A DNA stretch of 28,749 nt from a virus. Taxonomy: Duplodnaviria; Heunggongvirae; Uroviricota; Caudoviricetes. A model generated the notes under the pieces. It did not search any database, was not told the origin of the DNA, and worked only from the letters and a program-made list of their open reading frames with translations. The stretch lies in IMG/VR virus record IMGVR_UViG_2925914267_000002. The stretch is one strand, 5' to 3'. The translations under genes were made by a program, and so were the position numbers. Below, piece by piece: positions 1-28,749 of this stretch (positions are counted from its first letter, which is position 1; the number at the start of each line of letters is the position of its first letter).

Positions 1-19
1 CTATTTGATAAATATTAAA

Positions 20-4982: not shown

Positions 4983-5801
4983 ATGTGTCAGGTATTTGGT
5001 GTATCCAGGAGCGGTTATTACAACTGGGTACAGCATGAACCCTCAGACAGAAAACAAAGTGATGAGCGGCTAAAACTGGAGATTAAGGTGGCACATATCC
5101 GCACTCGCGAAACATATGGAACCCGGCGGCTCCAGACGGAGCTGGCAGAGAATGGCATCATCGTTGGTCGTGACCGACTGGCACGTCTTCGTAAGGAGCT
5201 AAGGCTACGCTGTAAGCAGAAACGCAAGTTCAGAGCGACTACGAACTCGAACCACAATCTGCCAGTTGCGCCAAATCTGCTGAACCAGACGTTCGCTCCT
5301 ACAGCACCAAATCAGGTCTGGGTGGCGGACCTGACGTATGTTGCCACACAGGAGGGATGGTTGTACCTCGCTGGCATCAAAGATGTTTATACGTGCGAAA
5401 TTGTCGGCTACGCCATGGGAGAGCGCATGACAAAAGAGCTGACAGGTAAAGCCCTGTTTATGGCGCTCAGGAGCCAGCGCCCACCTGCCGGGCTAATCCA
5501 CCACTCTGATCGAGGTTCACAGTACTGCGCATACGATTACCGGGTCATACAGGAGCAGTTTGGTCTGAAAACATCAATGTCGCGTAAAGGTAACTGTTAC
5601 GACAACGCTCCGATGGAAAGCTTCTGGGGAACGCTGAAAAATGAGAGCCTGAGCCACTATCGTTTTAATAACCGGGATGAAGCCATCTCAGTAATACGGG
5701 AATACATTGAGATTTTCTACAATCGTCAGCGTCGTCACTCTCGTCTGGGGAATATCTCCCCGGCAGCCTTCAGGGAAAAATATCATCAGATAGCTGCTTA
5801 A
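4983..5801 (+). CDS. IS3-family transposase OrfB (DDE catalytic domain), probably expressed as an OrfAB fusion by -1 frameshift
   Basis: 272 aa from the first Met, in the -1 frame relative to orfA. Contains DDE-type integrase-core motifs (WVADLTY, HSDRGSQY, YDNAPMESFW). Confidence 0.9.
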   Translation: MCQVFGVSRSGYYNWVQHEPSDRKQSDERLKLEIKVAHIRTRETYGTRRLQTELAENGIIVGRDRLARLRKELRLRCKQKRKFRATTNSNHNLPVAPNLLNQTFAPTAPNQVWVADLTYVATQEGWLYLAGIKDVYTCEIVGYAMGERMTKELTGKALFMALRSQRPPAGLIHHSDRGSQYCAYDYRVIQEQFGLKTSMSRKGNCYDNAPMESFWGTLKNESLSHYRFNNRDEAISVIREYIEIFYNRQRRHSRLGNISPAAFREKYHQIAA

Positions 5802-5844
5802 AAAAAGAACAAATGGTAGTGTCCGCTATTGCCAGTACACCTCA

Positions 5845-5867
5845 ACGTTTGGTAATAACGTTTTCAT
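5845..5867 (-). pseudogene. dicB: dicB N-terminal fragment (start codon and first 7 codons), detached by the IS600-like insertion
   Basis: Reverse complement of 5845-5867 reads ATG AAA ACG TTA TTA CCA AAC GT = MKTLLPN(V). Removing the IS and one ACG repeat rejoins it in frame with VNTSEGC at 4580. Confidence 0.75.
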
Positions 5868-6036
5868 TATGGCGTCCTCAACAATGAATTTTGTGATGCA
5901 GTGCCTGGTGCCTCCAGGTGACGTTAACCAGTTAACAATTAACGCCGGATACAGAGAATCCACCCATAACACTGTTTTTGGTTTTAACTGTTCCGCGTGC
6001 GCTTAGCCGCATTCACCGCATCACAAAATTCACTTT

Positions 6037-6094
6037 AAAAACGGCGGCAGAGCAGTCACGGAGTAAAACTGATACCGCCAAACGTCACCAGAAA
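6037..6094 (-). ncRNA. dicF: DicF small regulatory RNA, with terminator U-tract
   Basis: Minus-strand sequence TTTCTGGTGACGTTTGGCGGTATCAGTTTTACTCCGTGACTGCTCTGCCGCCGTTTTT matches the DicF sRNA as I recall it. Lies between the ydfA-like genes and dicB as in K-12 Qin; 3' GC-rich stem plus U-run. Confidence 0.75.
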
Positions 6095-6369
6095 ATTGAT
6101 AACAGAGGGCGTTGCAGCGGGGTTGTCACTTAAGCGTATGGTCAACCTGACAACTCGGTGTCCTCAACGGGGAAGGAATAACCCCGCCATACTTACCGCC
6201 GCGCCATTTCGCGGGTTGCCACAACCGGAAGCGCACGGTCGAATTAAATTTAACGACACCGTACAGTGAGACGAACTTCGCCGTGCGCTTTCGTGTTGTG
6301 TGCCTGCTTTTAACCACGTCAGGCGAGGTGGTATCCTTCTTATCCCGAATAACCAAGAAGGAAATCTAT

Positions 6370-6570
6370 ATGACTAAAGAAGAATTTGTCTCTTATATTT
6401 TTGATAAAACGGTTGAAATGTATGCCGCTACTTACGGGTCCTGTAATCCTCTGAATAAACCAGAGGGGAAAGATGATTTCGACAAAATTTACCGCTTCTT
6501 GGAGGACCGCTATATCAAAAGGTTAGAGGACGCAGGGATCAAATCCCCAGTGAAGTCACCATTGTCCTGA
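6370..6570 (+). CDS. Hypothetical small protein (67 aa from internal Met of track ORF 6283-6570)
   Basis: ATG at 6370 preceded by AAGGA; product MTKEEFVSYIFDKTVEMYAATYG... Lies on the strand opposite the dicB operon and overlaps the 3' end of the 6539-6916 ORF, so it is uncertain. Confidence 0.3.
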   Translation: MTKEEFVSYIFDKTVEMYAATYGSCNPLNKPEGKDDFDKIYRFLEDRYIKRLEDAGIKSPVKSPLS

Positions 6571-6916
6571 GAACTTGCAGGACGTCATGATCGTAACTTC
6601 CATCCAAACCGCGACGGCAAATTGCTTCTCGTATTACCGGAAGCAGTTCGCTGGAAATCTCGGTGCATATTTCACCTGCTAATACGCCTGGCTCAAGTGA
6701 GAATATTGGTGAACTTACGGTCTTGGTCTCGACAGTTTCAGAGTCAGTGCCAACATTATAAAGCTCAACGAAAGCGGTCTTGATTTTCCGGGCCAGATCT
6801 TTTGCTGGCTCGCTTGCAATATCTTTCCCGATTTCTCGCAGCACAGAATGCAATGTATGAGCTGCTGTTTTCTGTACATCAGACGGTAAATCTTTAAATT
6901 CCATCGTCAGCCTCAT
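6539..6916 (-). CDS. Hypothetical protein in the dicB-operon leader region (YdfB/YdfC-equivalent position)
   Basis: 125-aa ORF (possible start MEFKDLPSDVQ...) between the ydfA-like gene and dicF on the operon strand. Family not recognised with certainty. Confidence 0.45.
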   Translation of the reverse strand: MRLTMEFKDLPSDVQKTAAHTLHSVLREIGKDIASEPAKDLARKIKTAFVELYNVGTDSETVETKTVSSPIFSLEPGVLAGEICTEISSELLPVIREAICRRGLDGSYDHDVLQVLRTMVTSLGI

Positions 6917-18768: not shown

Positions 18769-20102
<1,334 letters not shown>

Positions 20103-20883: not shown

Positions 20884-20907
20884 AGGCTCCTTCGGGAGCT
20901 TTTTTGC
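20884..20907 (+). terminator. Rho-independent terminator after the cspI region
   Basis: GCTCC-TTCG-GGAGC followed by TTTTTTG. Confidence 0.5.
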
Positions 20908-20949: not shown

Positions 20950-21167
20950 ATGAAAAAAATCATAGTTTTTTTTAACTCTGAACCAGCAGTGGTAGTGCCA
21001 GCGATGACTGGAGTTAACACCATCATGCGTGAATATCCAAATGGCGAAAAAACACACCTTACTGTAATGGCCGCAGGGTTTCCATCTCTGACCGGAGATC
21101 ATAAAGTCATTTATGTAGCCGCGGATCGACATGTTACTTCAGAAGAAATTCTGGAAGCAGCAATAAG
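20950..21167 (+). pseudogene. Hypothetical prophage gene, 3'-truncated by IS1 (possibly YdfO/DUF1398-like)
   Basis: ORF MKKIIVFFNSEPAVVVPAMTGVNTIMREYPNGEK... runs into the IS1 terminal repeat; its last 7 codons and stop are IS1-encoded. Confidence 0.45.
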
Positions 21168-21182
21168 GGTAATGACTCCAAC

Positions 21183-21686
21183 TTATTGATAGTGTTTTAT
21201 GTTCAGATAATGCCCGATGACTTTGTCATGCAGCTCCACCGATTTTGAGAACGACAGCGACTTCCGTCCCAGCCGTGCCAGGTGCTGCCTCAGATTCAGG
21301 TTATGCCGCTCAATTCGCTGCGTATATCGCTTGCTGATTACGTGCAGCTTTCCCTTCAGGCGGGATTCATACAGCGGCCAGCCATCCGTCATCCATATCA
21401 CCACGTCAAAGGGTGACAGCAGGCTCATAAGACGCCCCAGCGTCGCCATAGTGCGTTCACCGAATACGTGCGCAACAACCGTCTTCCGGAGCCTGTCATA
21501 CGCGTAAAACAGCCAGCGCTGGCGCGATTTAGCCCCGACGTATCCCCACTGTTCGTCCATTTCCGCGCAGACGATGACGTCACTGCCCGGCTGTATGCGC
21601 GAGGTTACCGACTGCGGCCTGAGTTTTTTAAGTGACGTAAAATCGTGTTGAGGCCAACGCCCATAATGCGGGCAGTTGCCCGGCAT
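21183..21686 (-). CDS. insB: IS1 InsB (transposase catalytic part, made as InsAB' by frameshift)
   Basis: 167-aa [19 protein letters not shown]... overlapping insA. Confidence 0.95.
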
Positions 21687-21880
21687 CCAACGCCATTCAT
21701 GGCCATATCAATGATTTTCTGGTGCGTACCGGGTTGAGAAGCGGTGTAAGTGAACTGCAGTTGCCATGTTTTACGGCAGTGAGAGCAGAGATAGCGCTGA
21801 TGTCCGGCGGTGCTTTTGCCGTTACGCACCACCCCGTCAGTAGCTGAACAGGAGGGACAGCTGATAGAAACAGAAGCCAC
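21605..21880 (-). CDS. insA: IS1 InsA
   Basis: 91-aa zinc-finger/HTH protein [40 protein letters not shown]... Confidence 0.95.
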
Positions 21881-21935
21881 TGGAGCACCTCAAAAACACC
21901 ATCATACACTAAATCAGTAAGTTGGCAGCATCACC

Positions 21936-22807
21936 CGGATGGTGGCGTTCCCTGGAATGCCGAATCAGGCGCTTACAATGTCACCCGCTCTGGCAACAGC
22001 TATATTCTGGTTAACTTCTATACCGGAGTCGGAAGTTGCCGGACATTGCAGATGAAGGCGCATTACAGAAATGGAGGTCTGTTCTACCGTTCCTCAAGAG
22101 ATGGCTATGGTTTTGAGGAAGACTGGGCAGAAGTTTATACCTCGAAAAATCTTCCACCAGAAAGCTACCCAGTCGGTGCACCAATCCCGTGGCCATCAGA
22201 TACCGTTCCGTCTGGTTATGCCCTGATGCAGGGGCAGACTTTTGACAAATCTGCTTACCCGAAACTTGCAGCCGCTTATCCGTCAGGCGTGATCCCTGAT
22301 ATGCGTGGCTGGACGATTAAGGGCAAACCTGCCAGTGGTCGGGCCGTATTGTCTCAGGAACAGGACGGCATTAAATCGCACACCCACAGCGCCAGCGCAT
22401 CCAGTACGGATTTGGGGACGAAAACCACATCGTCGTTTGATTACGGCACTAAATCCACGAATAACACCGGGGCGCATACCCATAGTGTTAGCGGTACGGC
22501 TGCTTCAGCCGGTGCACATACCCATTCGATAACATTTGTTTCAGGTGGCACCAAAGGTGCTCCGGGAAGTGGATCACCTGATTATTCTAAATACAGTGTT
22601 AACACTTCTTCTGCAGGCGCTCATACGCACTCTGTATCGGGTACTGCTGCAAGCGCAGGTGCACACGCACATACTGTAGGTATTGGTGCGCATACGCACT
22701 CGGTTGCGATTGGTTCACATGGACACACCATCACCGTTAACGCTGCTGGTAACGCGGAAAACACCGTCAAAAACATCGCATTTAACTATATTGTGAGGCT
22801 TGCATAA
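21936..22807 (+). pseudogene. stfQ: Side tail fibre gene, 3' fragment (about 290 codons), 5' part deleted at the IS1 junction
   Basis: Open frame begins at the first base after IS1 (…[30 protein letters not shown]…) and contains GAHTHS-type His-rich repeats typical of lambdoid Stf C-termini. No start codon or RBS for the upstream portion. Confidence 0.85.
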
Positions 22808-23382
22808 TGGCATTCAGAATGAGTGAACAACCACGGACCATAAAAATTTATAATCTGCTGGCCGGAACTAATGAATTTATTGGTGAAGGTGATGCATATA
22901 TTCCGCCTCATACAGGTCTGCCAGCAAACAGTACCGATATTGCACCGCCAGATATTCCGGCTGGCTTCGTGGCTGTTTTCAACAGTGATGAGTCATCGTG
23001 GCATCTCGTTGAAGATCATCGGGGTAAAACGGTTTATGACGTGGCTTCCGGCGACGCGTTATTTATTTCTGAACTCGGTCCGTTACCGGAAAATGTTACC
23101 TGGTTATCGCCGGAAGGGGAGTTTCAGAAGTGGAACGGCACAGCCTGGGTGAAGGATACGGAAGCAGAAAAACTGTTCCGGATCCGGGAGGCGGAAGAAA
23201 CAAAAAACAACCTGATGCAGGTAGCCAGTGAGCATATTGCGCCGCTTCAGGATGCTGCAGATCTGGAAATCGCAACGGAGGAAGAAATCTCGTTGCTGGA
23301 AGCATGGAAAAAGTATCGGGTATTGCTGAACCGTGTTGATACGTCAACTGCACAGGATATTGAATGGCCAGCACTGCCGTAG
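22807..23382 (+). CDS. tfaQ: Tail fibre assembly protein (Tfa)
   Basis: 191-aa ORF; start overlaps the stf stop (TAATG); Tfa-like sequence and position. Confidence 0.85.
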
Positions 23383-23479
23383 GGTAAAACATATAAATTC
23401 TATAATTAGATGTATCTTTCCATTTACGGCAAGGAAGGGGGCTTGGAAGACGTAAAGCATCTCACACCGAGATTATTTT

Positions 23480-24070
23480 TTATATGTCAGGTGTCTGAAG
23501 TTTTGCTTTGGCTCTTAAAATGGTTTGCCGCGAGGTTTTGAATTCCCGGGCAATGGCACTTATACTTACACCTGACTTAATTCGTTCGAATACCGCCTGT
23601 TTCTGTTCTTCATTTAACACAGGTGGTCGACCAAAACGTTTCCCTGCGCCGCGGGCTCTTACTATCCCGGAATGAGTGCGTTCAAGTAAAAGGTCTCGTT
23701 CAAATTCAGCGACTGCTGAAATTACTTGCATCATCATTTTTCCTGTTGGACTGGTCAGGTCAATGCCCCCCAATGCTAAGCAATGCACTCTGATACCTGT
23801 TTCGGTCAGTTGTTCCACTGTTTTCCTGATATCCATTGCATTACAACCAAGGCGATCCAGTTTTGTCACAATCAATTGATCACCACATTTCAGGCGAGCA
23901 AGCAACCGGTTAAAACCAGGACGCTCACTGGTTGCTGCTGAGCCGCTAATGTGTTCTTCGATTATTTGCTGAGGTTTGATTTTAAAACCTGCACTTTCGA
24001 TTTCCCGGCGTTGATTTTCGGTGGTCTGATCCAGCGTTGATATCCGACAGTAAGCAAAAATTCGAGACAT
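23480..24070 (-). CDS. pinQ: Pin/Gin/Hin-family serine DNA invertase
   Basis: 196-aa ORF with N-terminal catalytic motif YCRISTLDQ (active-site Ser) and C-terminal HTH ([20 protein letters not shown]); adjacent to stf and tfa. Confidence 0.9.
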
Positions 24071-24386
24071 AGTGAGACTCTATACGAAATTGGTGTTCAT
24101 ATCATAATGCATCTCAGAAAATAATTATGATTATTTTTGTGCATATTTGTATGTACACGTTCGAAAATAAACGAATGCGTATGCAACCCCGTAATTTTGG
24201 TGAGACCCAAAATCGATTTTGTGAAAAATGGCTTTAACTCGGTTTGTTTTTCGAGTTCCGGGCGGACTCAAGGAAGAAGAATAGTGTTGCGTGTTATTTT
24301 AACCAGATTTCAAGTTGTTTGGTCGTGGAAAAGTGGAGCAAAATGTTGTTAAAGTGGAAAAATGATAAAAAAGTAAGTTTATTATA

Positions 24387-24539
24387 TTACATTTTACCAT
24401 TTAAATTTTGGTTGTCTTTAAGAACTGATATCGCTGTTTGTAATAATTCTTTGTTATCCAGCCATGATTTTTTCTTTATGTTTCCTTCAATGTAATCAAG
24501 CAATGTTCTGGTATTGATAGGTCTTCCCTGTTTTGCTAC
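24387..24539 (-). pseudogene. ydfK: ydfK (cold-shock-induced small protein), C-terminal 51 codons, separated by IS3
   Basis: Reverse complement reads VAKQGRPINTRTLLDYIEGNIKKKSWLDNKELLQTAISVLKDNQNLNGKM-stop; continues from the N-terminal fragment at 25798-25872 across IS3. Confidence 0.8.
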
Positions 24540-24569
24540 TGATCCTACCCACGTAATATGGACACAGGC

Positions 24570-25436
24570 CTAAGCGAGGTTCTTGTTTTCAAATTGTTCC
24601 GGACTGAGGCCGCCACACCAACTGTGCCGCCGCCACCGATTGTAATCACATTCGATATAATTAAACACCGTTGCCCGCATTATTTCCCGGCTGATAAAGT
24701 GTTCTCCATGGATACATTCCACTTTCAGCGAATGAAAGAAGCTTTCCACGCAGGCATTATCGTAGCAGCAACCTTTTGCGCTCATACTTCCACGCAGATT
24801 ATGCCGCTTCAGTTGCGCCTGATAATCTGCTGAACAGTACTGGCCTCCACGGTCCGTGTGAACGATAACGTTCCGGGGCCTCTTACGCCGCCACAGCGCC
24901 ATCTGCAGGGCATCGCAGGCCAGTTGCGCCGTCATGCGTGGCGACATTGACCAGCCAATAACGGCACGTGACCACAGGTCAATGACCACTGCCAGATACA
25001 GCCAGCCTTCATCTGTACGTAAGTACGTGATGTCTCCTGCCCACTTCTGGTTCGGGCCACTGGCGTAAAAATCCTGCTCCAACAGATTTTCTGACACAGG
25101 CAGGCCGTGTGCGCGGTAGCTGACCGGGCTGAACTTCCGGGAGGCCTTTGCCCTCAGTCCCTGACGGCGCAGGCTTGCCGCCACGGTTTTTACGTTAAAG
25201 GGGTAACCCTGAGCACGCAGTTCATCCGTCAGGCGTGGGGCACCGTAACGCTGTTTTGACCGGGTAAAAGCCGCGAGGACAACGCTGTCGCAGTGTTGGC
25301 GGAACTGCTGACGCGTGCTTATCCTTGTCCGCCGCTGACACCACGTATACCAGCCGCTGCGGGCCACCCGGAGCACGCGGCACATTGCTTTGATGCTGAA
25401 CTCAGCCTGATGTTTTTCAATAAAGACATACTTCAT
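24570..25436 (-). CDS. insF: IS3 transposase OrfB (InsF)
   Basis: 288-aa DDE-domain ORF overlapping orfA. Confidence 0.95.
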
Positions 25437-25741
25437 TTCAGGCGCTTCGCGAAGTATGTCGCGGCCTTTTGGAGGATAGCCAGCTCTTCATCCCGTTCTG
25501 CCAGCTGGCGTTTGAGACGTGCAATCTCGGTAGACATCTCCAGTTCACGTTCAGAAGACGTCTGCTGATTTTGCTGTTTACTGCGCCAGTTGTAGAGTTG
25601 TGATTCATACAGGCTGAGTTCACGGGCTGCGGCAGTAACACCGATGCGTTCAGCAAGCTTCAGGGCTTCACTGCGAAATTCAGGCGAATGCTGTTTACGG
25701 GGTTTTTTACTGGTTGATACTGTTTTTGTCATGTGAGTCAC
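25433..25741 (-). CDS. insE: IS3 transposase OrfA (InsE)
   Basis: 102-aa [38 protein letters not shown]... Confidence 0.95.
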
Positions 25742-25797
25742 CTCTGACTGAGAGTTTACTCACTTAGCCGCGTGTCCACTATTGCTGGGTAAGATCA

Positions 25798-27982: not shown

Positions 27983-28051
27983 CATATAACAAAACAGGTG
28001 ATGCTGCCAACTTACTGATTTAGTGTATGATGGTGTTTTTGAGGTGCTCCA

Positions 28052-28327
28052 GTGGCTTCTGTTTCTATCAGCTGTCCCTCCTGTTCAGCTACTGACGGGG
28101 TGGTGCGTAACGGCAAAAGCACCGCCGGACATCAGCGCTATCTCTGCTCTCACTGCCGTAAAACATGGCAACTGCAGTTCACTTACACCGCTTCTCAACC
28201 CGGTACGCACCAGAAAATCATTGATATGGCCATGAATGGCGTTGGATGCCGGGCAACTGCCCGCATTATGGGCGTTGGCCTCAACACGATTTTACGTCAC
28301 TTAAAAAACTCAGGCCGCAGTCGGTAA
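28052..28327 (+). CDS. insA: IS1 InsA
   Basis: 91 aa, identical in protein sequence to the insA of the first IS1 copy. Confidence 0.95.
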
Positions 28328-28749
28328 CCTCGCGCATACAGCCGGGCAGTGACGTCATCGTCTGCGCGGAAATGGACGAACAGTGGGGATACGTCGGGGC
28401 TAAATCGCGCCAGCGCTGGCTGTTTTACGCGTATGACAGGCTCCGGAAGACGGTTGTTGCGCACGTATTCGGTGAACGCACTCTGGCCACACTGGAGCGT
28501 CTTCTGAGCCTGCTGTCGGCCTTTGAGGTCGTGGTATGGATGACGGATGGCTGGCCGCTGTATGAATCACGCCTGAAGGGAAAGCTGCACGTTATCAGCA
28601 AGCGTTACACTCAGCGCATTGAGCGACATAATCTGAATCTGAGACAACATCTGGCAAGGCTGGGACGGAAGTCGCTGTCGTTCTCAAAATCGGTGGAGCT
28701 GCATGACAAAGTCATCGGGCATTATCTGAACATAAAACACTATCAATAA
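28246..28749 (+). CDS. insB: IS1 InsB (variant isoform)
   Basis: 167 aa; differs from the first copy at several clustered positions ([20 protein letters not shown] vs [20 protein letters not shown]). Confidence 0.95.

Follow-up and report, generated by a model that had tools for sequence, protein, structure and literature searches.

The invertases Gin (phage Mu), PinE (prophage e14), Cin (phage P1) and Hin are associated with the G, P, C and H segments, respectively, and members of this group are roughly 60–70% identical to each other. They also use a recombinational enhancer in cis that is bound by Fis and usually lies in the 5' part of the invertase gene; Fis sites are too degenerate to be recognized by sequence. 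Shufflons depend on a tyrosine recombinase and on several 19-bp repeats that flank multiple segments. A res region with three subsites is the classic layout for the γδ and Tn3 resolvases. Tn5403 is an active transposon of the Tn3 family that carries transposition genes only, and its insertions are flanked by 5-bp repeats. We have analyzed a stretch of tailed-phage DNA (Caudoviricetes; IMG/VR record IMGVR_UViG_2925914267_000002; 28,749 nucleotides, hereafter the window) in which pinQ, the gene of a small serine recombinase (PinQ), is convergent to tfaQ, a tail fiber assembly gene that is preceded by stf', the C-terminal part of a side tail fiber gene (Table 1). A first-pass annotation of the window had described the locus as a Gin/Pin/Hin-type invertase beside a single, fixed stf'-tfa cassette and had called it a shufflon remnant. 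Its coordinates and gene content were confirmed by the open reading frames (ORFs) and the Pfam matches. The origin that it gave to the recombinase was not confirmed: pinQ is very probably the stranded tnpR gene of a Tn5403-like transposon of the Tn3 family, and not the leftover of a local fiber inversion switch. The term Tn5403-like is a label of convenience.

PinQ has the catalytic domain, the serine (Ser11) and the C-terminal helix-turn-helix (HTH) of a small serine recombinase. It is 36% identical to Gin and 38% identical to PinE, and 164 of its 196 residues (84%) are identical in a recombinase of the same length encoded by plasmid pRM10386-2, which was reached through partial plasmid matches to the pinQ block. 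Although the gene is annotated pinQ and had been assigned to the Gin/Pin/Hin type, these figures (84% vs. 36–38%) point to descent from a Tn3-family resolvase. On pRM10386-2 the recombinase gene (tnpR) is divergent to a Tn3-family transposase gene (tnpA), with 160 bp between the two. The element that carries them (3.8 kb; L030, 6994–10808) is bounded on both sides by the same 38-bp terminal inverted repeat (GGGGTCCGCTTGGAAAACGGAAAATATCCCACGCTAAG), of the form GGGG...ACGCTAAG, and is flanked by a 5-bp target duplication (TAAAA). A Shewanella contig has the same recombinase-transposase arrangement (identities of 77% and 86%). Beside two abundant clusters of homologs (78–84% identity to PinQ), a DDE_Tnp_Tn3 gene was found 160 bp away at 5 of the 6 places sampled for one cluster and at all 6 sampled for the other; it encodes 994 residues where intact and is truncated in two places of the P0116 type. 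PinQ-like tnpR genes are present on 1,651 plasmids, mostly from Klebsiella and Escherichia. When PinQ, the plasmid TnpR, PinE and Gin were scanned against NCBIfam, no family was assigned at the cut-off, and the scan does not discriminate among them.

The synonymous divergence (dS) between pinQ and the E. coli plasmid tnpR is 0.61, and that between the same plasmid tnpR and the Shewanella copy is saturated. These values place pinQ inside the transposon TnpR clade and so give the direction of the transfer, from transposon to phage.

The homology is not restricted to the recombinase gene. By blastn, window positions 23435–24126 matched the terminal repeat, tnpR and the proximal part of res of the plasmid element with 82.8% identity. 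Of the 97 bp between tfaQ and pinQ, the first 54 bp are conserved in phage Tritos and in a second prophage lineage. They are followed by a single putative, decayed copy of the terminal repeat, which in this family is about 38 bp long, starts with GGGG and ends with ACGYTAAG. In a global alignment with the intact 38-bp repeat, the remnant (GGGG, then a 3-bp gap, then GCTTGGAAGACGTAAAGCATCTCACACCGAG) has ∼27 matches out of 35: the GGGG is kept, there are ∼8 mismatches, and the inner motif reads CACACCGAG instead of CACGCTAAG. The partner (far) terminal repeat is absent from the window, and tnpA was not found there by tblastn.

In the transposon copies, res is built from the half-site TGWCCGAAA, arranged as three dyads; site III lies nearest to tnpR and is followed by sites II and I. 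The site I dyad spans 28 bp with a 4-bp center, site II is ∼32 bp long, and the dyads are conserved among the enterobacterial, Hafnia and Shewanella copies. The region upstream of pinQ can be aligned with four such res regions, and a positional homolog of each site is found in it (Table 1), with the half-site cores mostly mutated. In a dyad scan, the best score in the window (12–13 out of 16) was at the shuffle level, and the transposon sites scored 15–16 out of 16; none of the positional homologs scored above 12 out of 16, the value of that of site II. Beyond site I, positions 24186–24259 aligned locally with plasmid pPK8275 with a score of 36, compared with 17.2 ± 2.2 in 300 shuffles, and this stretch is probably, if less securely, still transposon-derived. 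A remnant with its end precisely at the res site I crossover was considered and rejected, because the homology to pPK8275 runs ∼75 bp further. On pPK8275 itself (L031, 5873–7000), IS5075 lies inside the terminal inverted repeat beside the PinQ-like resolvase, and a CopG/RelE toxin-antitoxin pair is found beyond res in place of tnpA. IS5075 targets the terminal repeats of Tn21-type transposons.

The second prophage lineage (P0009 type, 85% identical, also beside tfa) has the same spacer, the same deletion in the repeat and the same upstream junction. Junctions common to both lineages suggest that capture and decay of the transposon are older than the split between them. Gene anatomy, homology, the lack of sites and the change at residue 76 are observed; from them we infer the order of events and the functional consequences as follows: (i) a Tn5403-like transposon would have inserted downstream of tfa in an ancestral lambdoid phage; (ii) the transposase gene, the far inverted repeat and the function of res would then have been lost from the inserted transposon, so that the survivors would be the decayed terminal repeat in the 97-bp spacer, the recombinase gene and the decayed res before the gene; (iii) PinQ would have been left without a substrate in cis, with stf'-tfaQ fixed; and (iv) PinQ, with its catalytic serine retained and a Cys in the place of the catalytic arginine, would be a poor catalyst, kept for DNA binding or for a function in trans.

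The alternative that the first-pass annotation had favored is a Gin/Pin/Hin-type invertase whose invertible fiber segment decayed to one fixed cassette, that is, the remnant of a shufflon or of a G segment. The location of pinQ next to tail-fiber genes, as for gin, cin and pinE, agrees with it, as do the 36–38% identity of PinQ to Gin and PinE and the rank of Gin as the top match among solved structures (106 bits, vs. 84 for γδ and 80 for Tn3 resolvase). The whole 28.7-kb window was searched by tblastn with TfaQ, Stf, the e14 proteins TfaE, TfaP and StfP, and the Mu proteins S, S', U and U'. No second cassette was detected: there is one fiber C-terminus, one tfa and one recombinase, and the 97-bp spacer (23383–23479) holds no inverted alternative cassette, as had been stated.

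For the crossover sites, every 26-mer was scored against a Gin-family consensus with 18 defined positions, and the reference sites were taken from phage Mu (gix, TTATCCAAAACCTCGGTTTACAGGAA) and from K-12 e14 (pixL and pixR). The best 26-mer in the window scored 13 out of 18, which is the level of shuffled sequence (12–14), and the real gix and pix sites scored 16–17. The earlier remark that convincing 26-bp crossover sites could not be identified is borne out by this gix/pix-like search. Paired inverted 26-bp sites (of the TTATCNNAAACC NN GGTTTNNGATAA type) around an adjacent segment were not found in the window, an intact relative with full-length stf (L001) has no gix-like site either, and the scan of related loci gave nothing above the shuffled background. 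In a generic search for direct and inverted repeats between positions 20900 and 24600, the IS1 ends alone were meaningful.

The gene orientation also differs from that of the invertases. pinQ is read towards tfa, and it is its 3' end that lies on the tfa side; gin of Mu and pinE of e14 abut their invertible segments with the 5' end. The comparison with the e14 pin and Mu gin segments yielded low identity, opposite gene orientation and no paired sites. The nearest relatives of PinQ (84%) are resolvases encoded by transposons, which also have tnpA, terminal repeats, a target duplication and a res of three sites, and among the non-enterobacterial homologs (57–77% identity; L015–L022) none has tfa or stf neighbors. 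Identical geometry in thousands of genomes, and in phages with quite different fiber genes, likewise speaks against decay of a local switch. PinQ has no partner site, second cassette or transposase in cis; therefore, the stf'-tfaQ segment is fixed and PinQ is an orphan recombinase, as had been proposed. Nothing points to an invertible fiber segment ever having existed at this locus, and a decayed fiber invertase, already largely refuted, is highly improbable.

By its gene order, the region is the right-hand end of a cryptic lambdoid prophage of the Qin/Rac type, annotated stfQ'-tfaQ-pinQ: tfa, the 97-bp spacer, the convergent pin and ydfK are collinear near the attachment-site (ydfJ) end, as in the late-region end of Qin and Rac. 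A 2.4-kb stretch occurs with 100% identity in several E. coli genomes, where it is annotated 'tail fiber protein, tfaQ, pinQ' and from which the name tfaQ is taken; it is matched in 5,059 of the 5,426 complete E. coli genomes. The side that runs from the end of tfa through the spacer and pinQ to ydfK is collinear, with the tfa-97 bp-pin geometry, in 2,655 of them. The gene order in an uninterrupted relative is J, lom, stf, tfaQ, pinQ (convergent), ydfK, ynfT and ydfJ'. The remainder of a Qin-like prophage makes up the left 21 kb of the window: it starts with int (beside rspB) and continues through dicB, the immunity region, hokD, an antiterminator gene, the lysis genes and cspI to ynfN.

PinQ is also present, with 98.5–99.5% identity, in phage genome records (HannyBb, mEp460, 2H10, Tritos and others), and the protein encoded in the window differs from the phage copies by one residue (A158 instead of V). 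In Tritos, pin is located downstream of other fiber genes, and the homology to the window begins only in the last 110 bp of tfa. Because the tfa-97 bp-pin geometry recurs in phages and across thousands of genomes, a single cassette is the normal state of the module and not a product of local decay. The claim of a single fiber C-terminus and tfa cassette holds; the term shufflon remnant does not, because one cassette is the standard state in 2,655 of 5,426 genomes and in phages, and apparent remnants of a transposon repeat and res flank pinQ. The locus is already known as the stfQ'-tfaQ-pinQ module of an E. coli cryptic prophage, and no new category is needed.

Window positions 23272–24540 and Tritos (L003) positions 5531–6799 form one block with 99% identity. 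This mobile block comprises the last 110 bp of tfa, the spacer, pinQ and the intergenic region on the ydfK side; the phage fiber genes are otherwise unrelated, and the tfa tail in Tritos is a non-coding remnant.

HMMER alignments with γδ resolvase (1gdt) and Gin place Cys76 of PinQ at the position of resolvase Arg71, in the motif KLDRLG-R. At codon 76 the window, Tritos and the second prophage lineage share TGT, and every transposon copy examined has CGT. Across 120 homolog clusters, residue 76 is Arg in 114 and Cys in 5, all of the latter being prophage PinQ/PinR types. PinQ keeps Y7, R9, S11, Q15, Q20, R50, D72, R73, E122 and R123, and the D36 equivalent is Glu throughout the PinQ clade. The catalytic set defined in Tn3 resolvase (Y6, R8, S10, D36, R68 and R71) is incomplete, with Y7, R9, S11 and R73 kept and R71 replaced by Cys76. 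The R71A and R71K variants of Tn3 resolvase do not recombine and cleave ∼1000-fold more slowly, and their site binding is kept (PMC2794168). By analogy, PinQ acting on its own would probably recombine slowly or not at all; it would probably still bind DNA and be a poor catalyst. The Cys in place of the catalytic Arg71 makes direct catalysis by PinQ questionable, and does not refute it.

Chimeric recombinases (P0004–P0008) combine a transposon-type N-terminal part, including Arg76, with a prophage-type C-terminus. One of them (P0008; L045, 6001–6591) lies in an ordinary ydfK-pin-tfa prophage context, and looks like the outcome of gene conversion from a plasmid tnpR to a prophage pinQ that restored the catalytic arginine.

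The two Cys76 lineages differ by 26 synonymous and 34 non-synonymous changes (dN/dS of 0.37), a significant excess of silent changes (binomial p of 5e-4 against neutrality). The constraint is tighter in the transposon copies (dN/dS of 0.03–0.15). The intact ORF and the apparent purifying selection in phages and prophages imply a retained role of pinQ, which may be DNA binding or a function in trans. The opposite view is that pinQ is a functionless relic that drifts to a pseudogene and is carried in a block recombining among lambdoid phages. The loss of tnpA, res and the catalytic arginine, the relaxed constraint relative to the transposon copies, and the frameshifted pin copies in some genomes (L023 and L024) would agree with a relic. 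We nevertheless regard a relic as improbable, given that thousands of genomes and isolated phages retain the full 196-codon ORF, that silent changes are in excess between the two Cys76 lineages, and that a deletion phenotype has been published (PMC12529663).

Several points weigh against pinQ being a stranded tnpR whose product is a poor catalyst. Besides the first rank of Gin among the solved structures, the PinQ clade in general lies not very distant from the invertases. No genome spans the junction expected of an empty site (the end of tfa plus 54 bp joined to position 24186 onward), the copy of the terminal repeat is decayed, and the far limit of the transposon remnant can be set only approximately. 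The effect of the Arg-to-Cys change is deduced from mutants of Tn3 resolvase and not from a measurement on PinQ. Finally, Kirigo et al. (2025) reported that the Qin-encoded PinQ stimulates inversion of the P segment of e14, so that T2 adsorption is blocked (PMC12529663). By qPCR, inversion was ∼88% upon PinQ overproduction vs. ∼30% in the wild type, and deletion of pinQ lowered it (PMC12529663). The half-site of transposon site I (ATGTCCGAAACC) matches the gix and pix half-sites at 8–9 of 12 positions, which makes cross-recognition of pix by PinQ plausible.

The last observations would fit a PinQ that is a fully competent invertase and acts in trans at the e14 pix sites as an anti-phage switch, as proposed by Kirigo et al. 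(2025). In the same study, T2 survivors carried the 1797-bp P-segment inversion, and the effect was lost in stfP, stfE and e14 deletions (PMC12529663). Other data do not fit a competent invertase. PinQ has a Cys at the equivalent of catalytic Arg71 (PMC2794168), and the crossover site of its family is 28 bp with a 4-bp center, not 26 bp with a 2-bp center. A pinE mutant was locked in one orientation despite the presence of pinQ and pinR (PMC12529663), a result that is ambiguous, because the deletion may also remove an enhancer. An 88:12 orientation ratio is unusual for, and not expected from, a simple reversible invertase. In the text of PMC12529663 that was searched, no catalytic-serine mutant control was found, and the paper makes no mention of resolvase ancestry or of the Cys76 change. 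The window contains no e14 DNA. We consider full competence of PinQ as an invertase possible, but rather unlikely. The suggestion that the recombinase acts in trans or is inactive did name the two live options: e14 inversion has been published (PMC12529663), and the Arg-to-Cys change suggests impaired catalysis (PMC2794168).

To return to pinQ as a stranded tnpR, it is possible, although rather less likely than not, that PinQ and PinR are a captured resolvase that was kept, after loss of the catalytic arginine, for a non-catalytic or accessory role. PinQ may be a DNA-binding regulator, may bias another invertase such as PinE at pix, or may interfere with incoming Tn5403-like elements, to whose res it would still bind. 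If such a role were true, the published inversion of e14 by PinQ would be an indirect effect, and PinQ would not be its catalyst.

The flanks of the module have been rearranged. The stf' segment lacks a start codon and the N-terminal part; it corresponds to residues 828–1116 of the intact 1116-residue Stf of the related prophage L001, with 100% identity, and matches the Pfam families Collar, Phage_fiber and gp37_C. The adjoining IS1 has no 9-bp target duplication (flanks AGCAATAAG at 21159–21167 vs. CGGATGGTG at 21936–21944) and, when compared with L046 and L001, links stf codon 828 directly to ynfN, at the 3' end of the latter. Together, these two features point to an IS1-associated deletion that begins at this end of ynfN and extends up to stf codon 827, by which gnsB, the terminase and all head and tail genes would have been lost; in intact relatives this segment is >20 kb. 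The IS1/stf junction had no match among complete E. coli genomes. A second IS1 copy in reverse orientation forms with the first an inverted pair that brackets a 6-kb stf'-tfaQ-pinQ-IS3-ydfJ' block. Homologous recombination between the two copies could invert the bracketed block, and would mimic inversion isomers in reads without any role of PinQ.

The IS3 flanks differ by 6–9 bp from the uninterrupted allele of L001, from which the position of ydfK was taken. A promoter and terminator scan of positions 23300–24545 gave weak promoter matches only (9/12) and no terminator. In the left part of the window (19077–20102, junction near 19607), a 2-bp deletion (TG) removes the overlap of the rrrQ stop and the rzpQ start, so that the lysozyme and Rz-like genes run together as a single ORF of 341 codons; strain SCU-102 has two overlapping genes there.

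Table 1. Features of the stf'-tfaQ-pinQ locus and its flanks (window coordinates)
Feature	Position	Strand	Basis or detail
IS1, 768 bp, truncates stf	21168–21935	-	Terminal inverted repeats; InsA and InsB Pfam matches
stf', C-terminal 289 codons of the side tail fiber gene	21936–22807	+	Frame from 21938; stop at 22807
tfaQ, intact tail fiber assembly gene, 191 aa	22807–23382	+	Caudo_TAP, E 3.6e-43 (Pfam scan)
tfa-pin spacer, part not transposon-derived, 54 bp	23383–23436	.	Outside blastn homology to transposon copies, which begins at ∼23435
Putative decayed terminal inverted repeat, Tn5403-like Tn3-family transposon	23437–23471	+	Inward-facing, towards pinQ
pinQ, 196-aa small serine recombinase	23480–24070	-	Resolvase and HTH_7 Pfam matches, E 2.5e-36
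pinQ codon 76, TGT (Cys)	23843–23845	-	Position of catalytic Arg71 of Tn3/γδ resolvase
pinQ codon 11, catalytic serine, retained	24038–24040	-	Equivalent to Ser10 of resolvase; aligned with Gin and γδ resolvase
Putative decayed res region upstream of pinQ, 115 bp	24071–24185	-	Alignment with four transposon res regions
Site III-like	24081–24099	-	Positional homolog in alignment with transposon res
Site II-like	24112–24143	-	Positional homolog in alignment with transposon res
Site I-like	24158–24183	-	Positional homolog in alignment with transposon res
Further stretch homologous to pPK8275 DNA beyond res site I	24186–24259	-	Local alignment vs. shuffles
IS3, 1258 bp, in ydfK (gene upstream of pinQ)	24540–25797	-	TAC on both sides; OrfA and OrfB ORFs
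Second IS1 copy, cut by the window end	27997–28749	+	blastn with first IS1: 97.1% over 753 bp, reverse orientation

What is added here to a known locus is the likely descent of pinQ and pinR from a Tn3-family resolvase, together with the Arg-to-Cys change in the active site; neither was found in the literature searched. Thousands of genomes and several papers call the gene 'Pin invertase', and its sequence points to a resolvase stranded in a phage. The nomenclature has also traveled in the opposite direction. Plasmid maps write 'Tn5403-pinR', where a resolvase adjacent to Tn5403 was automatically annotated 'pinR' (PMC13253593), and the name 'Serine recombinase PinR' has spread by automatic annotation to Tn3-family resolvases on resistance plasmids (PMC13253593, PMC13340248; OW849235.1). 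The PinR label on Tn3-family resolvases is a naming artefact that hides a real relationship. PinQ has recently been proposed as the catalyst of a recombinase-activated anti-phage switch. Given its Cys in the place of Arg71 and a cognate site of the resolvase type, it would be an unexpected catalyst for inversion of the e14 P segment, which bears on the published mechanism.

When compared with Gin, PinE, Cin and Hin, PinQ has a similar fold, with a C-terminal HTH and a GRPP arm, and its gene likewise lies beside tail-fiber and tfa genes. In contrast, its identity to Gin and PinE is only 36–38%, compared with 78–84% to transposon resolvases; its recognition helix reads RQTILR, whereas Gin-type invertases have STLY; and the locus has neither paired 26-bp sites nor a second cassette, with the 3' end of the gene towards the fiber genes. 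The e14 P segment is reported to cross-react with PinQ (PMC12529663). The only likeness to the R64 shufflon (Rci, sfx sites) is the recombinase-driven switching of C-terminal adhesin segments; here the recombinase is of the serine type, there is one segment, and the region has no repeat families.

The stfQ'-tfaQ-pinQ (Qin) and stfR-tfaR-pinR (Rac) modules of K-12, and the corresponding modules of mEp460, 2H10 and Tritos, are the same gene block as that in the window. The DNA is 99.8–100% identical over tfa, the spacer, pin and the ydfK side, and spacer and orientation are alike. The window differs from them in that stf is cut by IS1 at codon 828, with a deletion, and ydfK is split by IS3.

The Tn5403-like elements share with the window a TnpR that is 84% identical in protein and DNA that is 83% identical from the repeat through tnpR into res, the recognition-helix region K/RT-S/T-RQTILR, and the same order of repeat, tnpR and then sites III, II and I. 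In contrast to these elements, the window has no tnpA and no second repeat, its repeat and res are degenerate, and Arg76 is replaced by Cys. This comparison suggests that the locus is the remnant of a TnpR module rather than a member transposon.

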